A DNA stretch of 64,000 bases. It comes from a virus (Duplodnaviria > Caudoviricetes). Below, piece after piece: positions 405-14,005 of this stretch. The position numbers and the translations under genes are program-made. The stretch is from positions 1-64,000 of the IMG/VR virus record IMGVR_UViG_3300020047_004811, one strand, 5' to 3'. The notes below the pieces were generated by a model that saw only the letters and a list, made by a program, of their open reading frames with translations, ran no database searches and had not been told where the DNA came from. Every line of letters starts with the position of its first letter. Position 1 is the stretch's first letter.

Positions 405-540
405 AAGGCGGAACACTCGAAAGAGATTGACGCTAGGTTACTTGTTCGATCTTTAGATTAAACTTGTAACCACCACTTGACGGTAAACGTGGTTGTGGTA
501 AGATGGTTGTAACAAGGCAAACAATAAAGTTTGCTTTAAC
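405..540 (+). ncRNA. candidate structured leader RNA
   Basis: CTC-GAAA-GAG hairpin 416-425, GGTTAC/GTAACC helix 436-441/466-471, further hairpins to 540; no long ORF. Confidence 0.35.
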
Positions 541-887: not shown

Positions 888-950
888 AGGCGAAACATGG
901 GCGATAACTTCAATCATGTCTCGGGGTTAAACTCCGACTGACGAGCCTAA
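888..950 (+). ncRNA. hammerhead ribozyme HH1 (type II)
   Basis: AGGC-GAAA(892-895); stem III ACATG/CATGT; GUC(918-920); stem I TCGGGGT-TAA-ACTCCGA; CTGACGA(938-944)-GCCT; predicted cleavage after C920. Confidence 0.9.
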
Positions 951-1352
951 AGCATTGATTTGGCTGAATTAATCCGAATTATGCGATAGAATGAAACGGT
1001 TTTCTCAGAAAAAATATGCGAGCCGTAGTGCCGTGGGGGCAAATAGCACCCGATCGTAGAGGGCAAATAGTCCGGTATCATAGTGGTGGGGTTTTTACCG
1101 TAAGGTTGAAACTTACAATTAAGTGAACCGGCTGAACGTCCTTAAACCTAGCGTCCGTGCGAAACACGACTAGCTGTGAGGTCTACGATATTCACCTGAA
1201 AAACCCGCTATAAGCCGGTATATCATGGGCTGGAACATACGAAAATGGTATTGTTCCATAGGTCAGACTCTAACTCGGGAGAGAAGGGGAATGATAAGGG
1301 AAACTTAATTCAAAAGATTATTTACAGCCCCTAGGCTATATGCTTGGGGGCT
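951..1352 (+). ncRNA. large unclassified structured RNA between HH1 and HH2
   Basis: No ORF in the track; many helices: GGGCAAATAG x2 (1037,1061), GTAAG/CTTAC 1100-1116, ACCGGCT/AGCCGGT 1127-1133/1213-1219, GGGTTTTT/AAAAACCC 1089-1096/1199-1206, TGGAACA/TGTTCCA 1231-1258. Confidence 0.7.
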
Positions 1353-1356
1353 TTCC
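1326..1356 (+). terminator. 11-bp hairpin with short U tract (possible weak terminator or 3' stabiliser)
   Basis: AGCCCCTAGGC-TATAT-GCTTGGGGGCT followed by TTCCT. Confidence 0.5.
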
Positions 1357-1403
1357 TATTAGGGTGTGCGCCCTAACTGATGAGATCAAAAGATCGAAAG
1401 GAA
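1353..1403 (+). ncRNA. hammerhead ribozyme HH2 (type III)
   Basis: TTCCT-A (CUA triplet, cleavage after A1358); stem I TTAGGG-TGTGCG-CCCTAA; CTGATGA(1377-1383); stem II GATC-AAAA-GATC; GAAA-GGAA. Confidence 0.92.
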
Positions 1404-1407
1404 TCCT

Positions 1408-1599
1408 ATGAAATGGTTATTTAAAATTCAAGATAATGGTAAGGGTTTTAGAGCCTATTGGTTCTTTAATAAGTTTAAGATTTCATTTAATTCATATAAA
1501 GATTTTATGTTTACTAAAGGCAATTCAAGTATTTGGATTGATATTCCTTATGTAGAGATTAAAATTAAGCGAAATTACAAGGGTCACTTTATCTCTTAA
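1408..1599 (+). CDS. hypothetical protein
   Basis: ORF track; SD AAGGA overlaps the 3' strand of HH2 stem III. Confidence 0.65.
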   Translation: MKWLFKIQDNGKGFRAYWFFNKFKISFNSYKDFMFTKGNSSIWIDIPYVEIKIKRNYKGHFIS

Positions 1600-1701
1600 C
1601 GCCGAGGGAAATCATTCCCTTGCTTTATCATATCAATAGCTTACCCCATGACACATCAAAATCGCTAGGAATCTAGTGAACTATTTTCTTTTAGGAGAGG
1701 T

Positions 1702-2783
1702 ATGAAAGTATTCTACGGACTAATCAAGGGTACTCTATGGTATGTATCTGAAACTATGCCCGAAAAGGCATCATATATTGTTATTCATGCAGAAACTATA
1801 CAAGATGCAGAGATCAAACTGTTTGCTATAACTAACGAACATAACCCTAGGATTTATCTATGAAATTTAGATATGTATTGTTCCTAGCATTCTTTATGAC
1901 TACACTAGTGAGTGTACTAGCCGCAGCTAGAATGCCTAGTAAACAAACAATCGAGAAAGCTCTTAAGGCTGCGCCTTATTTCAGGAGATAGTTATATGAT
2001 ACCTGATACACTTAAGCAGGGTATGGTGTTTGAAAAAAATACAAGAGAAATAACAATCCTATTAATTAACGGAGATACAGCAACAATTAAAGATAGTTAC
2101 ATGTCACAGCCTTATGATTTTGATTTATCATCCTTACATCAAGGGCTTATTCATGCTAACTTCACACTTAAACTTAAGCCTTTAGATAAGGCTATGAAAG
2201 AATTAGATAAACAATTCTGCACACATAAGAATATTCGTCGGGATATGTATTTCTCGGCAGCAGTATACCTTACTTGTAAGGATTGTGGTAAGCCAATGAA
2301 TTGATTTTAGTCTCGGTCGCCGACTCTCAAAACAAAGTGCAAGGAGTGTTCTATGGCTAAGAACCGCAAGAAAATATTCCCAAAACCTCCAGTTCGCTAT
2401 CATTCCAAGCTCGCAAAAGAGCTAGGCAAATACTCAAACAAAACGGACGTAAGGGCTAATCTTATTGGTATATATTATCAGCCAATTAAAAATCAAGCCC
2501 CAGAACTTACTCAAAAACAAGAGACTCAACTCGAAAAGTTACGTGCTAACATAGCAAAGAGGGACGTATGAATGCAGTAAAAATTGTTCCACAAGTTAAG
2601 CCTTTAACTAAAGAAGAAATCCTAGCTAGACTTCATGTATTGGAAGTTAAAGCTGATGTATATTCCCGAAATGATTGGGAAGCATACAATACTCTCCTAG
2701 CTGAAATCAAAGATTTAGATATGAAGTTACTAGATATATATACAACCGAAAACATCACATGGCTTAACAAACAAAAAGCCTAA
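1702..2783 (+). other. run of five small hypothetical ORFs (1702-1863, 1860-1991, 1996-2304, 2353-2571, 2568-2783)
   Basis: SD motifs and ATGA overlaps; the first two were read manually (below track cutoff). Confidence 0.6.
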
Positions 2784-2793
2784 AAAGGAATCC

Positions 2794-3351
2794 ATGCGCT
2801 CAATTATTCTAGTATTTGTATTTCTCTGTCTAGCTGGTGGATGCGGTCGTCGTCCGGGTAAGGTAGGACTAACAGGTGCGCCCGGTACTAACGGTACTGA
2901 TGGATTGTCACTCGTTGTTAATGTGGTCGAGCTAACTACTGAAGATAGCATTGCTTGCAAACTCACTAACATCTATCAAGACACTAATAGAGACGGACTA
3001 TACTCAACCGGAGACACATACAATAATGGATTTCTAGTATGTGATGGTGCTGTGGGGGCACAAGGTGAGCAAGGTGTAGCTGGTGAGCAAGGCGAGACTG
3101 GAGAAGACGGAACTGACGGTACAAATGGAACTAATGGGTTGAACGCTGATACTACATATAGCATTGTATCAATTGTAGACCCTTGTGGTGACACTCCCGG
3201 TGTATACGATGAGGTCATCCTTAAACTTGGCAATGGTACATATATATCAAGCTTCTCAGATAATGTGCAGGGTTATAACACAAGGCTTGGGATACTTACT
3301 CACGGAACTTTTATGACTACTGACGGAACTAGCTGCGTATTTACAATCTAA
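2794..3351 (+). CDS. collagen-like repeat lipoprotein
   Basis: Hydrophobic signal with lipobox LAGGC; two Gly-X-Y tracts; Cys-containing C-terminal domain. Confidence 0.75.
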   Translation: MRSIILVFVFLCLAGGCGRRPGKVGLTGAPGTNGTDGLSLVVNVVELTTEDSIACKLTNIYQDTNRDGLYSTGDTYNNGFLVCDGAVGAQGEQGVAGEQGETGEDGTDGTNGTNGLNADTTYSIVSIVDPCGDTPGVYDEVILKLGNGTYISSFSDNVQGYNTRLGILTHGTFMTTDGTSCVFTI

Positions 3352-3403
3352 TAACCGGAGTCCTATACTGGGCGGTGTTGTCGACCACTAATCATGCGGA
3401 CAA

Positions 3404-3483
3404 AGGCGAAACATGGGCAGTAATAGAGAGATAACTCTCATGAACCCCATGTCTGTACATTATATGTACACTGATGAGCCTAA
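3404..3483 (+). ncRNA. hammerhead ribozyme HH3 (type II) with bulged-G module in stem III
   Basis: AGGC-GAAA; stem III ACATGGG/CCCATGT; GUC(3451-3453); stem I TGTACA-TTATA-TGTACA; CTGATGA(3471-3477)-GCCTAA. Confidence 0.92.
3419..3447 (+). repeat. 29-nt RNA module, copy 1 (AGUA/GAA bulged-G motif plus GAGAG/CUCUC hairpin)
   Basis: 28/29 identical to 6273-6301. Confidence 0.85.
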
Positions 3484-3496
3484 CATAAGGATATAT

Positions 3497-3718
3497 ATGT
3501 ATCTAAGACTAGCTTTTCTAGCTGCTTTAATTACTATAACTATGTCTAATCATGTTCCCGATTTATTGCCTTCCCCGACTAAAAACATAGCATTGGTAAA
3601 ATACAATGATGTTGTATATCAATGTCAAGAAATAGTAGCTACTAAGTGTGGGTATTCATTACACTGTACTGATATGTTTATTCATTGCGCTAACGATATA
3701 GTAATCGAACGCATTTAG
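3497..3718 (+). CDS. small membrane/secreted hypothetical protein
   Basis: Start reassigned to ATG3497 (SD AAGGA, downstream of HH3); hydrophobic N-terminus. Confidence 0.6.
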   Translation: MYLRLAFLAALITITMSNHVPDLLPSPTKNIALVKYNDVVYQCQEIVATKCGYSLHCTDMFIHCANDIVIERI

Positions 3719-3734
3719 TCCTGCTCGCCAAAAT
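3715..3734 (+). repeat. 20-nt intergenic motif, copy 1
   Basis: TTAGTCCTGCTCGCCAAAAT vs TTAGTCTTGCCCGCCAAAAT at 5913-5932. Confidence 0.7.
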
Positions 3735-3749
3735 ATAAATCGAGGTTGT

Positions 3750-4131
3750 ATGAGTCCGTGGAAAATAATCGACAATAGTTTTTTCCATCTAATCTATAAT
3801 TCCAAACAAGCGCATTTTAAATTCCTGTGGGCTGAGAAAATTTATTCCATAAACTTTTATACAGCGAGGTTAGTAAATGATACAATGCCCCATCATAAAG
3901 GAATCTACTATAACTGGAGTGACAAGCAACTCCAAACCCTCTCACTCAAAGAAAGAATTGCCGAGCTTAGCCGAAGAAATATTGAGCGCAAAAGAAGCCG
4001 AGCTTGATCTAATGTGGGATAAAATTCAAGAATTAAAACATACTGATAAATTTGCGGCGCAAGTCCTATATGAACGGTACAAAAGATTGGTAGGTGAAAT
4101 CCCCCCTCCAACGCCGTCTGACATTGCATAA
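3750..4131 (+). pseudogene. hypothetical protein split over two overlapping frames (3750-4007 and 3877-4131)
   Basis: Removing one A from the A4 run at 3990-3993 joins the two frames into one coiled-coil-like ORF. Confidence 0.35.
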
Positions 4132-4198
4132 GCCGTATTGTACTGGATGATAGATGCCCGGTACATCACGCCGATACAAGGAAACTTGTAACTCTAAA

Positions 4199-4332
4199 AG
4201 GCGAAATAGGTTTGCTCCCTATGACTAGGCAGGCGATAGCTTCCCGAAGGTAGGAGTAAATAAGTAGAGTTTGTCAAGTAAAAACCAAACCTCTCACCTA
4301 TCTGTGCGTTATTCGTACACTGATGAGCCTAA
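4199..4332 (+). ncRNA. hammerhead ribozyme HH4 (type II) with ~85-nt insert in stem III
   Basis: AGGC-GAAA(4203-4206); stem III ATAGGT/ACCTAT; AUC(4300-4302); stem I TGTGCG-TTATT-CGTACA; CTGATGA(4320-4326)-GCCTAA. Confidence 0.88.
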
Positions 4333-4341
4333 AGGAAACAC

Positions 4342-4602
4342 ATGAAAAAAATTAATCCTGACATCTTTCCAGCCAATGCTGCGGGCTATGATTTACATGG
4401 CGACTTGAACTATCCTACTTTCATGAAAGAACTAATGCTACGCCCTATAAAGGAAATGGATTACTATAAAGGTAAAGTTACTATATGTATCCCTCATTTC
4501 GATGAGGCTTTCTATGAGAGAATCAGTAAGTATGGTATTAAGAAAGTAAATTGGCACGGCACAGTAAGAGTTATGTCTAAAGATTTAATAGACTATGAAT
4601 AA
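4342..4602 (+). CDS. hypothetical protein
   Basis: ORF track; SD directly after HH4. Confidence 0.65.
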   Translation: MKKINPDIFPANAAGYDLHGDLNYPTFMKELMLRPIKEMDYYKGKVTICIPHFDEAFYERISKYGIKKVNWHGTVRVMSKDLIDYE

Positions 4603-4617
4603 AACAAAGGAGATTCC

Positions 4618-5901
4618 ATGTCTAAAGTAATTGCAACTGATCTCAAACCTAAAGATTTCGTAGATATAGATGCTCCTGCTATTCGAGGCTGGTGTAATGC
4701 GGCTAAGCTTAGTGGAATGATTTCTACCATTCAAGATTATAGTATAAGTGGCGTGATGCATAAATGGGTAACTCTCGTTACAGAAAAGGGTTTTCAAGCA
4801 GCATACCTACCTCTAACTCAAGAAGTAACTAAACAAGTTATGTCAGAGAAAGAGTTGGAAACTCGGGTTATCAAAACTAATATGAGATTCTTACCTAGAA
4901 CTATTCATGGGCAAGGCTCTGACCCTGAAATGTTTGTAGTGAATAAGGATGGCATTGTTATTCCATCATTTGATTTCCTACCTTCTCACAAACAAGTAAC
5001 AGTTAATCAACCATTCTGGGATGGCTTCCAAGCTGAGTTTAATATCCCCGGAGTGTCATGTCTCGACCAAACTATTGGACACTTACAAGCTGGATTATTT
5101 AATCTATATCGTGCGGCTATCAAACATAATAAAGATGCAGCCTTAACCATTAAACCAACGCTTGAAATTCCTCCTCATATGTTAACAGAGGGTAAGGATG
5201 AGCATGTTCAGTTTGGTTGTATGCCTAGTAAGAACGTATATGGTATGAAAGGAATCCAAGCTGATGGTAAGGACGTACTTGTCCGATCGGCTGGCGGACA
5301 TATTCACCTACAGCTAGACAACAAACAAAAGAAAAAAATTGAAGACTATGTTATAGCACTCGATGCAATTCTGGGAGTTGCTTGTGTATCTATGTTCGGT
5401 AATATAGATGACCCTATCCGTCGCCAATACTACGGACTAGCGGGTGAGTATCGTACTCCTAAACATGGTATGGAATACAGAACATTATCTAATGCGTGGA
5501 TGTGTCACCCGACTATTGCTTATGTAGTATTCGAGCTTGCTCGTAAGGTTTGTACGCTAGTAGACAAAGACTTATTCAAGCATTGGCAATTCGATAAGGA
5601 TGAGGTTATTTCTTGTATCAATGAATGTAATATTCCACTAGCTATTGAAATCCTACGTAGGAATGAAGAAATGTTTAGAGATATACTATATTCATTCTGT
5701 TATAGAGATGATAAGAATGTAGATGTTCTATACAATACTTTCTTAGCCGGAGCTGAGGTATTGATCGGCGACCCTAACGATCTAGTATTCAATTGGAATC
5801 TAAATGGGCAAAGAGATTGGTCTACATCATCTTCTCGTATCCACTATATGAAAGAGCGCAATCCAAACTATAATAAGGTCGCTAAGTTAGACCTTAAATA
5901 A
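4618..5901 (+). CDS. phiEco32-like COOH-NH2 ligase type 2
   Basis: Motifs GSDPEMF, DGFQAEFN, FGCMP, RSAGGHIH, YGLAGEYR, EYRTLSNAW. Confidence 0.85.
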   Translation: MSKVIATDLKPKDFVDIDAPAIRGWCNAAKLSGMISTIQDYSISGVMHKWVTLVTEKGFQAAYLPLTQEVTKQVMSEKELETRVIKTNMRFLPRTIHGQGSDPEMFVVNKDGIVIPSFDFLPSHKQVTVNQPFWDGFQAEFNIPGVSCLDQTIGHLQAGLFNLYRAAIKHNKDAALTIKPTLEIPPHMLTEGKDEHVQFGCMPSKNVYGMKGIQADGKDVLVRSAGGHIHLQLDNKQKKKIEDYVIALDAILGVACVSMFGNIDDPIRRQYYGLAGEYRTPKHGMEYRTLSNAWMCHPTIAYVVFELARKVCTLVDKDLFKHWQFDKDEVISCINECNIPLAIEILRRNEEMFRDILYSFCYRDDKNVDVLYNTFLAGAEVLIGDPNDLVFNWNLNGQRDWSTSSSRIHYMKERNPNYNKVAKLDLK

Positions 5902-5912
5902 CAAAGACAATT

Positions 5913-5947
5913 TTAGTCTTGCCCGCCAAAATCGGCTGGCTTAATTT
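5913..5947 (+). promoter_or_regulatory. 20-nt motif copy 2 overlapping a sigma70-like promoter
   Basis: TTGCCC(5919-5924)-N17-TAATTT(5942-5947). Confidence 0.45.
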
Positions 5948-5976
5948 TATGCCCATTTTATGGGCGAGGAGTATCT

Positions 5977-6264
5977 ATGTCACAGGTAAAAACTGCTTCA
6001 GGTCAATCAGAAATCAAACGTCTTGAGGAACAACTAAAAGCACTCAAGGCACAAATTCCTTCAGTTCAAAACAAGGAAATGAAGATCACATCTAAGATCG
6101 GAGAGAAGGGGACTGTAAACTTCTACGGTCTTCGTAAGTTTCCTATCTGCTTGTTTGCTTCGGAAGTTGCTAAACTTACTAAGCTCTTTAACTCCCCTGA
6201 GTTTCAAGAGTTTGTCAAGTCTAATGCTGAATCTCTCGCTAGAAAAGAAGTTAAAGCTGAATAA
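5977..6264 (+). CDS. hypothetical protein
   Basis: ORF track; SD GAGGAG. Confidence 0.7.
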   Translation: MSQVKTASGQSEIKRLEEQLKALKAQIPSVQNKEMKITSKIGEKGTVNFYGLRKFPICLFASEVAKLTKLFNSPEFQEFVKSNAESLARKEVKAE

Positions 6265-6267
6265 TTG

Positions 6268-6303
6268 TAGGTAGTAATAGAGAGGTAACTCTCATGAACC
6301 CTA
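6268..6303 (+). repeat. 29-nt RNA module, copy 2, closed by TAGG/CCTA
   Basis: AGTAATAGAGAGGTAACTCTCATGAACCC; the flanking helix differs from copy 1 but still pairs. Confidence 0.85.
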
Positions 6304-6457
6304 AAAGGCGAAGACAGTCTAGCCAAACTTTGTTAAAGGTTAAAGAATCGGCGTGGTGCTGATTCGCTGTTTAGTTCTTTCGATTTATAAATTACTCTTG
6401 GTATAGTGAACGGATAATGGGGATAGGATGCCGTATAGAGCCTCCCCGGCTATAACA

Positions 6458-6547
6458 AGGCGAAACGGCGAGGCTGGTGAGGCACCTCATAATCAAGGTT
6501 CAATTCCTTGAGCCGTTTAGTATTTATGATACTACTGATGAGCCTAA
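6458..6547 (+). ncRNA. hammerhead ribozyme HH5 (type II) with tRNA-like insert in stem III
   Basis: AGGC-GAAA; stem III ACGGC/GCCGT; GUU(6515-6517); stem I TAGTAT-TTATG-ATACTA; CTGATGA(6535-6541)-GCCTAA. Confidence 0.88.
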
Positions 6548-6563
6548 CAAAAAAGGAATTACT

Positions 6564-6779: not shown

Positions 6780-7442
6780 CACCAGTAGATACATACATGA
6801 AGCAACGTCATATCCCCAAACAATGGGATGACTTTAAACCCAAACATTACAAGTTAACTCCTCGATTTGTAATAGATACTGAAGATGAGGTTCAAGAGCC
6901 GGATGAAGTTTGTCCGTGCTGCGAAGATCGTAATAGCTCTAAGTCTGAAGCTAAGAAAGTCTTAGTCTTGTCGGGCGATAAATAGGGAAACTTTATGCAC
7001 TCACATTATCACGTTGGATGTGTATATAAACGTGGCTCGGAATTTATCTATGTCACAGAAAAAAGACCTAGACATTCTATTGGATGCGGAGAGCATTATG
7101 TGTGGCGGGTTATAGATATTAAAACTGGAAGGCTAGGTAAGGAAGGTACTGGGTTTGGCGGGGTGATATGCGAACCTATAAACTGTGAGATACAAATTAA
7201 AATCAAATTCAAAGAGGAGTCGCATGTCCAAATCGAATCCTAGAGAAACTTGTCGATATAAGTATTGTCAAACTTTGTATTCATTACATAGAATCACTAA
7301 AGGTTCTAATCTTTCTTATGAAAAATCAGATAGTAAATGGCCTGATCTAGTATTGCGTAATAAGAAAGGTAAAAGAATAGCTACCGTTATGACTTATGGG
7401 CCTTTTGGTGGTATCAATCATGACCTTAGATATGGGGAGTAA
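6776..7442 (+). other. three small hypothetical ORFs (6776-6985, 6995-7243, 7224-7442)
   Basis: ORF track; coupled starts and stops. Confidence 0.55.
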
Positions 7443-12346: not shown

Positions 12347-12482
12347 GATGTGGGTTCAGTATGGTTGCGCTATGAATCATGATTCTTTCCAGCTTAGATC
12401 GTTTCCAAACGAGCCTTACTTTCCAACTGGTATTGCTAGAGTATACTATACATCATTCTGTTTGAGGTTAATTTATGAATAA
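12339..12482 (+). CDS. FxLxL micro-protein family member
   Basis: Manual translation MNRMWVQY...TSFCLRLIYE (47 aa). Confidence 0.7.
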   Translation: MNRMWVQYGCAMNHDSFQLRSFPNEPYFPTGIARVYYTSFCLRLIYE

Positions 12483-12609
12483 ATACTATGTTCAATATGG
12501 TCGGGCGAGATATAAAGGAAATATGTTTAGGTTCTATAGTACATCTAATAGTAGTATGGGATTTAACCCTAAAGTTACATTCCAATTGAGTTTAGTATAT
12601 GAAGAATAG
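12475..12609 (+). CDS. FxLxL micro-protein family member
   Basis: Manual translation MNKYYVQY...VTFQLSLVYEE (44 aa). Confidence 0.7.
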   Translation: MNKYYVQYGRARYKGNMFRFYSTSNSSMGFNPKVTFQLSLVYEE

Positions 12610-12751
12610 AATGTGGGTTCAGTATAACTTTGATGATTGGTGTCCGGGCAGTGAAAAGGGTAAGTTCCATATGTTCCAAAATGAACCACATTTTCCAACC
12701 AAGTCCAATTTAGAATACTACGGGACATTCGTTCTAAGACTATACTACTAG
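12599..12751 (+). CDS. FxLxL micro-protein family member
   Basis: Manual translation MKNRMWVQY...GTFVLRLYY (50 aa); close paralog of 12339-12482. Confidence 0.7.
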   Translation: MKNRMWVQYNFDDWCPGSEKGKFHMFQNEPHFPTKSNLEYYGTFVLRLYY

Positions 12752-12758
12752 GAGTTAT

Positions 12759-13022
12759 ATGCAATTCATACAATTAGCAGTAAGTCCTGGGGCTGGTATT
12801 CCTGATTCAGATGGTTATTGTTTTGGTCAATTACAACCAGAATCATATAGAGATGGAACTCTCAAATATAAATTCAGATATCACCCTAAGAGTAATGGAA
12901 ATTTGGGTGGATGGAAATGTAACTTGGCTCACAAAACAAGTTTCAAACTAACCCTAACCTTCGAGGAATCATATGGATTACGGAACCCTGATCCTACTCA
13001 TAGTAACTCATATCCTTTTTGA
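12759..13022 (+). CDS. FxLxL micro-protein family member
   Basis: MQFIQL...TSFKLTLTFEE plus tail. Confidence 0.65.
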   Translation: MQFIQLAVSPGAGIPDSDGYCFGQLQPESYRDGTLKYKFRYHPKSNGNLGGWKCNLAHKTSFKLTLTFEESYGLRNPDPTHSNSYPF

Positions 13023-13380
13023 CTTTGTCCTCCAGTCTAGGGATGTCGCCACTAATAAGTCCTCTAATATCAAGTACCTAATCCCACACCTAGTTATACT
13101 AGGATTCGGATTAATGATTTTCACTAAACTCTCTGGACGATACTCTCCAAACCAAGCTATATTATTTGTATGCTGGAACGTAATACTACACGGAGTCATT
13201 GACTGGAATATTTGGAGGGTGTATAAGAGATTGGTATTGTGGCGAACCAAAGGGCAAGCCGACTATGACTACAAGTTCTACGAGGATGGTATGTTCTATG
13301 ACTTCATAGCATACGACCAAGGGTTACACGCACTGTGTTATCTAGGACTTGACTGGACTGTAAGGAGTTTCGTGGTATGA
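12973..13380 (+). CDS. DUF3307-like membrane protein
   Basis: THILFDFVLQS, HGVIDW, DQGLH; several TM helices. Confidence 0.75.
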   Translation: MDYGTLILLIVTHILFDFVLQSRDVATNKSSNIKYLIPHLVILGFGLMIFTKLSGRYSPNQAILFVCWNVILHGVIDWNIWRVYKRLVLWRTKGQADYDYKFYEDGMFYDFIAYDQGLHALCYLGLDWTVRSFVV

Positions 13381-13607
13381 AAAAAGAAGAATGGCATATT
13401 GTTCAACTTGGGGATAATCGACAATGTACTGTCAATGGGGTTCCTGGCTGGCATTATTGTGTCGGTTTTCAAAATCAACACATTCGTTCTGGTAGCAAAC
13501 ACAGGTACACTTGCGCATTAAACGGAGCCCTTGCCTACGGATCACTTAATACTTGGCAAGTTCACCCAGAACATCGAACTAATTTCTCCCTAACTATAAC
13601 CTTCTAG
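13377..13607 (+). CDS. FxLxL micro-protein family member
   Basis: WHIVQL...TNFSLTITF. Confidence 0.6.
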   Translation: MKKEEWHIVQLGDNRQCTVNGVPGWHYCVGFQNQHIRSGSKHRYTCALNGALAYGSLNTWQVHPEHRTNFSLTITF

Positions 13608-13792
13608 GAGGCTATATAATACTATTCATAATACTAATGGTTCTTCTAACCTGTAAACTTCTAACCCCGAGTGTCGCTGGAAATGTATTTCTCCTAGTGA
13701 CCTTGACAATACTAGAGTATATGCTTATAGTATTAGGTATGTTTGTCACTCCAGCGTTTGTATTCTATCTATACTTTTATAAGAGGTGAGCC

Positions 13793-14005
13793 ATGTATTG
13801 CTTTGCCCAAGTAGATCGGTACGATGAGGAAGATGATGATCCTTATACAGGGTTAATTTCTGATCGAGATAAGTTAACATATAAAGATCGCAATCGGATT
13901 GTATCTAACGATGTTTATCCTTTCAAAGAATTTACTAAGTTAGTTAAATCTGATTCAAAGAAAACCACAGATAGAAGTTACAGATTCTATTTAATATTGG
14001 AGTAG
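13793..14005 (+). CDS. FxLxL micro-protein family member
   Basis: MYCFAQV...YRFYLILE. Confidence 0.6.
   Translation: MYCFAQVDRYDEEDDDPYTGLISDRDKLTYKDRNRIVSNDVYPFKEFTKLVKSDSKKTTDRSYRFYLILE

Follow-up and report, generated by a model that had tools for sequence, protein, structure and literature searches.

A co-oriented set of hammerhead ribozymes in the early region of an uncultured phage and its relatives

Hammerheads between early genes

The first 64 kb (64,000 nt, hereafter the window; G+C 39.6%) of the single 87,316-bp IMG/VR virus record IMGVR_UViG_3300020047_004811 come from an uncultured dsDNA phage of the Caudoviricetes that carries five hammerhead ribozymes, here HH1 to HH5, between its early genes. 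Small genes occupy the + strand from ~0.5 to 51.7 kb, and large structural genes lie on the - strand beyond. Recognisable products are a phiEco32-type COOH-NH2 ligase, an amidoligase, a GATase, a ribonucleotide reductase, a DnaB-like helicase and a family B polymerase. No DNA match to this genome was found among cultured phages, where the closest polymerase match (27% identity) is with Salinibacter phages.

The ribozymes were first proposed from the letters alone, in what we call the original prediction, as five hammerheads on the + strand with none elsewhere. A strict descriptor, which allows any of the three permutations and asks for CUGANGA, GAAA, a U-H dinucleotide at the cleavage site and three perfect helices, returned exactly these five, with the same cut sites, whether applied to the window or to the full record. 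They are all + strand and intergenic, and together span 5.7 kb. Relaxed thresholds added only weak matches (stem sums of 9-12, compared with 16-18 for the five). Dinucleotide shuffles (n=60), scanned with loose thresholds, yielded 0.03 matches per window, all weaker than the five.

Four of the five are type II hammerheads, with closed stems I and III and an open stem II (stems I/II/III of 6-7/4/5-7 bp). These are HH1 (888..948, stems 7/4/6, predicted cut after C920), HH3 (3404..3481, stems 7/4/7, cut after C3453), HH4 (4199..4330, stems 6/4/6, cut after C4302 at an AUC triplet) and HH5 (6458..6545, stems 7/4/5, cut after U6517 at a GUU triplet). As had been noticed, they are paralogs with a common AAGGCGAAA...CTGAnGAGCCTAA frame whose stem I and stem III sequences differ yet pair in every copy. 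HH2 (1353..1403, stems 7/4/5, cut after A1358 at a CUA triplet) is of type III, with stem III open. According to ViennaRNA, HH1, HH2 and HH3 have the hammerhead junction as their minimum free energy (MFE) structure. In HH5 the junction is at most 0.1 kcal/mol from the MFE, and in HH4 it is 1.7 kcal/mol above it.

A search with the Rfam Hammerhead_II and Hammerhead_3 models, suggested as a check, gave nothing at gathering score in the window, and searches by E-value returned only sub-threshold hammerhead matches and noise. The best RF02276 score was 17 bits, for HH5 only, against a gathering threshold of 37 bits that no type II copy reaches; HH2 was not reported by RF00008 (gathering threshold 48.5 bits) even at E 10. 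In catalytic core, permutation (stem II open) and AGGCGAAAC...CUGAUGAGCC frame, the type II copies agree with the RF02276 consensus. They score low because of their loop III inserts (13, 28, 84 and 42 nt in HH1, HH3, HH4 and HH5, compared with a mode of 4 nt in an IMG/VR sample), short loop I, 4-bp stem II and lack of an AGCC-type pseudoknot tail. The Rfam hammerhead models miss insert-bearing variants entirely.

The pattern AGGCGAAA-N35-65-CTGANGAGCCT has matches in >120 IMG/VR contigs. We built a covariance model, R1, from 100 non-redundant IMG/VR type II hammerheads, none of which comes from this genome. Run on the 64 kb with filters off, R1 recovered the four type II copies at 36.9-48.5 bits: HH3 with 48.5 bits (E 6e-11), HH5 with 45.7 bits (E 3.5e-10), HH1 with 42.6 bits (E 2e-9) and HH4 with 36.9 bits (E 7e-8). 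Nothing else in the 64 kb scored better than E 0.3.

Conservation in related phages

Relatives were found through the COOH-NH2 ligase (window 4618-5901), which has homologues at 52-64% amino acid identity on contigs of 86-92 kb, and seven neighbourhoods (L127-L133) were compared. The ligases of the relatives with the array are 52-61% identical to that of the window. The amidoligase, used as a query for related loci, found no relatives. All seven share a co-oriented layout in which the first + strand gene is followed by an HH1 orthologue (type II), a conserved non-coding stretch and an HH2 orthologue (type III); one to four more type II copies come after this and precede small genes. The same array is therefore present in seven relatives, which answers the suggestion to look for syntenic arrays in related phages. 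The genes between the ribozymes vary (PA14, SET, collagen-like and Ro60, for example). HH3 has orthologues in L127, L128, L129 and L132, and the L127 orthologue of HH4 has a homologous insert. Conservation was also followed in more distant relatives. HH2 and part of the non-coding stretch are kept in L135, from which the type II copies are absent; L134 showed no hammerheads and no such non-coding RNA within 5.5 kb of sequence, and L002, a relative found with the ligase at 40%, is without hammerheads.

The core CUGANGA ... GAAA and the U-H cleavage dinucleotide are present in all four type II copies of the window and in 26/26 copies of the family. An alignment of 25 family copies to R1 has 98.2% of its cells paired, and compensatory changes occur at 12/16 pairs. 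The covariation score is 0.70, compared with 0.19 after shuffling (0/500 as high) and <=0.12 for slid partners; this alignment is model-fitted, which favours structure somewhat. Stem II covaries as well (AGGC/GCCU to AAGC/GCUU). For HH2, five orthologues are 98.6% paired, 6/15 pairs are compensatory and slid controls gave 0; the variants of stem II are GAUC/GAUC, GUUC/GAAC, GUCG/CGAC and GUCCU/AGGAC. Because of these compensatory pairs we regard HH2 as genuine despite the missing Rfam match. The independent covariance model, the synteny and the covariation in seven relatives show that the five elements are genuine hammerheads, four of type II and one of type III.

Two further HH2 orthologues have large inserts in loop I. 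The one in L127 (5744-5873) holds a genuine tRNA-Glu(UUC) (Rfam 49 bits, also called by ARAGORN), 10 nt past the predicted cut. In L131, an 84-nt insert that is not a tRNA occupies the same place.

HH1 has orthologues in 6 relatives, and what lies downstream of it is a non-coding RNA (ncRNA), not a gene. The stretch 949..1325 (~380 nt) on the + strand has no credible open reading frame (ORF). Its column identity with the relatives is 74%, with invariant blocks of up to 40 nt, whereas identity of the proteins next to it is only ~55%. With an nhmmer profile the stretch was recovered in 6 relatives (E 1e-88 to 1e-116) and in part in L135. RNAalifold predicted 86 pairs, 46 of them with compensatory change, and the fragment folds better than its own shuffles (z-score -3.2). 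It has no Rfam match, and exact-pattern scans of viral contigs and metagenome contigs for the invariant blocks found nothing. Cleavage at HH1 and HH2 would excise an RNA of 438 nt (921-1358). Just before the HH2 cut, a terminator scan detected an 11-bp G+C-rich hairpin with a weak U tract (1326..1352, + strand), which is retained with different sequence in L128 and L129. With this hairpin, the processed RNA would begin and end with hairpins.

Start-codon geometry and a proposed model of early RNA processing

Stem II of HH3, HH4 and HH5 ends 15, 11 and 18 nt before an ATG (at 3497, 4342 and 6564), and a Shine-Dalgarno (SD) sequence AAGGA stands between (3487-3491, 4332-4336 and 6553-6557, respectively). 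Only 4 nt separate HH2 from an ATG, and the GAAAGGAA of this ribozyme (core plus 3' strand of stem III, 1396-1403) is the SD of the ORF that starts at 1408; in all HH2 orthologues the ATG follows stem III by 3-7 nt. The state of core position N7 in the type II copies of the family goes with this spacing. When N7 is G (CUGAGGAGCCU, CUGAGGA; 8 cases), the start codon always comes 2-3 nt after stem II, so that the only SD is the GAGGAG made up of core and stem II. When N7 is U or C (10 cases), there is a separate SD and the start codon is 9-18 nt away. At least three sets of orthologues contain both states. Of the 172 type II hammerheads in the broad IMG/VR sample, 78% have their end 15-34 nt ahead of the start codon of an ORF of 40 or more amino acids. 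This fixed spacing, together with the N7 rule, argues that the ribozymes have been selected as parts of translation-initiation regions.

The original prediction had also pointed to a loop I that begins with UUA and a 3' tail that contains UAA, and it had found these compatible with the pseudoknot that activates type II hammerheads. The two motifs are present in all four type II copies of the window, where the tail is (GCC)UAA. In this family the pseudoknot found no clear support. The match amounts to three A-U pairs only, one of which competes with stem II, as the tail UAA takes in the last U of that stem. Among the relatives, loop I can read UAUUG and the tail UAUAUG, for example. Complementarity of loop I with the tail is 3.73 in the family, no better than the 3.84 obtained with permuted partners. 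In the broad IMG/VR sample it is higher than with permuted partners (3.84 against 3.33, standard deviation 0.07).

Long stem III inserts are general in this family: loop III measures 11-84 nt in all 26 type II copies, in length classes common to orthologues. One class has an ACGG(U/C)...GCCGU stem that closes two hairpins. The sequence of the inserts is poorly conserved between orthologues, the architecture is kept, and no aptamer or known RNA family matched them. In the window, HH3 has a 28-nt hairpin and HH4 an 84-nt insert. The 42-nt insert of HH5 (6466-6515) has two hairpins and ends in a T-arm-like one (CAAGG-UUCAAUU-CCUUG) that recurs only in L130 (2907-3017). We considered and rejected a tRNA-like identity for this insert: ARAGORN found nothing, the only signal was a mascRNA-like match at 16 bits (E ~1), and most orthologous inserts are without a T-loop.

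We consider it probable that these hammerheads act in cis in the 5' untranslated regions of early genes, where they would segment the early RNA, free ribosome-binding sites and release the ncRNA between HH1 and HH2. The host RNA polymerase would transcribe the early region from sigma-70-like promoters, and each ribozyme would fold and cut itself. The upstream piece would then end in a 2',3'-cyclic phosphate behind the structured stem III domain. At the head of the downstream piece would be a 5'-OH and the stem I hairpin, with the next gene's SD and start codon following within 4-18 nt. Since only the 4-bp stem II (type II copies) or the 5-bp stem III (HH2, in which the 3' strand is the SD) would hold the products together, we infer that they separate and that the ribosome-binding region is freed. 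The strand set free in this way, from the core, stem II or stem III, is itself the SD or lies next to it. A multi-gene early RNA would be turned into defined segments with uniform, hairpin-capped 5'-OH leaders, insulated translation and differential stability, and the HH1 and HH2 pair would release a structured ncRNA of ~440 nt. Both ends of the cleaved RNAs should be protected, from 5'-end-dependent decay and from 3' exonucleases. Engineered parts resemble this array in working principle only. In RiboJ-type insulators, a self-cleaving ribozyme before the ribosome-binding site yields a defined 5' end whatever the upstream context, and in Tornado and ribozyme-guide RNA-ribozyme cassettes an RNA with a ribozyme on either side is set free with 5'-OH and 2',3'-cyclic phosphate ends.

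This account goes beyond the observed motif, statistics, homology, synteny, covariation and start-codon geometry: that the sites are co-transcribed, are cut in vivo and affect stability and translation is inferred. Several points weigh against it. The Rfam models are below threshold on all five elements. The loop I/tail contact that makes type II hammerheads fast has here at best three A-U pairs and does not appear to covary in the family. HH2 has a CUA triplet and HH5 a GUU triplet, which in general are slower than GUC. The expected effects on stability and translation derive from the general behaviour of 5'-OH ends and 5' hairpins in bacteria. Finally, the array had been described as dicing one early transcript. 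The spaces between the ribozymes hold terminator-like hairpins (1326-1352, 1603-1622 and 6345-6365) as well as a repeated intergenic motif, which may split the region into several transcripts, so the single transcript does not stand as more than a supposition.

Other explanations account for parts of the same evidence. The ribozymes could be regulated, with the long stem III inserts binding a protein, a tRNA-interacting factor or a small molecule that switches cleavage and the expression of the next gene. The size of the inserts in every family copy, the shared stem closing two hairpins in one class and the apparent absence of the activating pseudoknot fit such a switch, and regulated phage hammerheads have been suggested before (Perreault et al. 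2011, PMC3088659). We nevertheless find it unlikely, as the inserts keep their architecture and little of their sequence, match no aptamer or known RNA family, and are equally well explained as a structured 3' end for the upstream fragment. Less probable still is that the ribozyme frames (AAAGGCGAAAC ... CUGAUGAGCCUAA) serve mainly at the DNA level, as homologous boundaries for the exchange and duplication of early-gene cassettes, with RNA cleavage secondary. The paralogy of the copies in the window would agree with this, as would the second copy of a stem III hairpin with its hammerhead remnant (6270-6333) and the differing gene content between ribozymes among relatives. Most of the ribozymes are orthologous and syntenic rather than shuffled, and the stems covary to keep pairing while every catalytic nucleotide is invariant in 26/26 copies, which indicates selection on an RNA fold and not on DNA homology.

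A slightly smaller chance goes to an array that chiefly matures non-coding RNAs (the 0.4-kb HH1-HH2 RNA and tRNA or tRNA-like inserts), the gene-proximal ribozymes being by-products of duplication with little effect. The module of HH2 and ncRNA is indeed the most deeply conserved, as it persists in the distant L135 that has no type II copies, and loop I of HH2 in L127 holds a real tRNA-Glu. However, the gene-proximal copies are kept in all close relatives, and the N7/start-codon rule and fixed spacing show selection on them too. Chance motifs or inactive relics, to which the lack of an Rfam match at gathering score might point, are very improbable given the rate of 0.03 matches in shuffles, R1 E-values from 6e-11 to 7e-8, and synteny with compensatory changes across eight genomes.

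Within the preferred account of cis-acting ribozymes in early leaders, we put forward a more specific proposal tentatively and with some doubt. HH1 and HH2 would form a dedicated maturation cassette for a new class of phage ncRNA (~380-440 nt), made at the start of infection, capped by hairpins and ending in 5'-OH and 2',3'-cyclic phosphate groups that a host RtcB could circularise. The gene-proximal ribozymes would at the same time be cleavage-dependent ribosome-binding modules, in which the core evolves into an SD (CUGAGGA) when the start codon moves close. Circularisation of the 921-1358 RNA is possible in principle; neither an RtcB nor a Ro60/TROVE gene was found in this phage genome.

The array itself is of a published type. 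Prophages with clustered hammerheads on the flanks of genes are known from Perreault et al. (2011, PLoS Comput Biol, PMC3088659), who showed in vitro and in vivo cleavage, demonstrated it for three prophage arrays and proposed the processing of long phage transcripts into mRNAs. The likeness is close, with several hammerheads within a few kb, on the same strand between small phage genes, and a long phage RNA cut into gene-length pieces. The same study described the loop I/3' tail pseudoknot, with at least 4 bp in the majority of members, and, in an early operon of a halovirus, a hammerhead 13 nt ahead of a start codon. In our IMG/VR sample, 38/122 loci have two or more hammerheads, and many have 3-8 co-oriented type II copies. 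The novelty implied for phage arrays was therefore overstated. The proposal of an RNA-processing system fared better: the ribozymes are co-oriented with early genes, intergenic and cut just before ribosome-binding sites, so it is plausible, but it is not new. Type II hammerheads near phage-like genes in Desulfovibrio vulgaris are active in vivo by cyPhyRNA-seq (PMC8782182), which shows that the class cleaves in cells; those copies are minimal (68-71 nt), come from another organism and were not part of an array-wide analysis.

Compared with the prophage clusters, the present set is syntenic and covarying and can be traced through a family of uncultured phages of ~86-92 kb. Its members have long structured stem III inserts and no evident loop I/tail pseudoknot, and a type II and a type III ribozyme bracket a conserved ncRNA. 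The function of hammerheads in bacteria and phages was still called largely elusive in a 2019 review (Weinberg et al. 2019, PMC6765202). This family offers a clean comparative data set, with syntenic covarying ribozymes whose core toggles between two states, CUGA(U/C)GA with a separate SD and CUGAGGA serving as the SD itself, and it points to a ribozyme-released early ncRNA. The bracketed ncRNA and the toggle are the fresher parts.

Other features of the early region

A consensus scan detected a putative sigma-70-like promoter (TTGACG-16-TAAGAT, 477..504, + strand) upstream of the first + strand genes; its sequence TTGACGG...TGTGGTAAGAT is kept in L127. It is followed on the same strand by a micro-ORF for 16 hydrophobic amino acids (554-604) and, just after it, by gene 1 (606-878, 90 amino acids), the coding sequence upstream of HH1. 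The relatives have a similar tiny hydrophobic ORF at the same place and conserve the position of gene 1. A PHROG search gave no family for either.

Upstream of HH5 on the + strand, 6270..6333 contains a copy of the HH3 stem III hairpin (direct repeat 6270-6301, 94%) and a hammerhead remnant (6304-6333, AAAGGCGAAg...AGCC). The remnant is a weak R1 match (12 bits) without stem I, stem III or CUGANGA. This stretch is the trace of a past duplication of ribozyme units.

The repeated intergenic motif is TTTAGTCYYGYYCGCC(N)AAAA, ~20 nt long, which stands right after stop codons at 2306, 3714, 5912 and 19916 (with a variant at 6960). It occupies early intergenic gaps that have no hammerhead and may be a phage promoter or a processing signal. 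L128 has a Ro60/TROVE gene (12385-13947) in its early region, with the ligase on one side and the amidoligase on the other.

A 4-kb contig from another sample, L001 (IMG/VR 3300020049_012058), which the ligase search also returned, consists of three rearranged pieces of the same phage (99-100% identity) and unmatched sequence, and is a chimeric assembly. A perfect 33-nt inverted repeat joins 1-33 and 1290-1322 of the window, the first arm lying exactly at the window start. An invertible switch was considered for it and rejected, as the relatives are without the repeat and the arm sits at the contig start; an assembly break or artefact is the more probable origin. In the relatives, the region that matches the window start has terminase and endolysin genes immediately upstream, on the opposite strand. 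From this arrangement we conclude that the phage map is circular or permuted and that position 1 is probably an assembly break in a divergent intergenic region.

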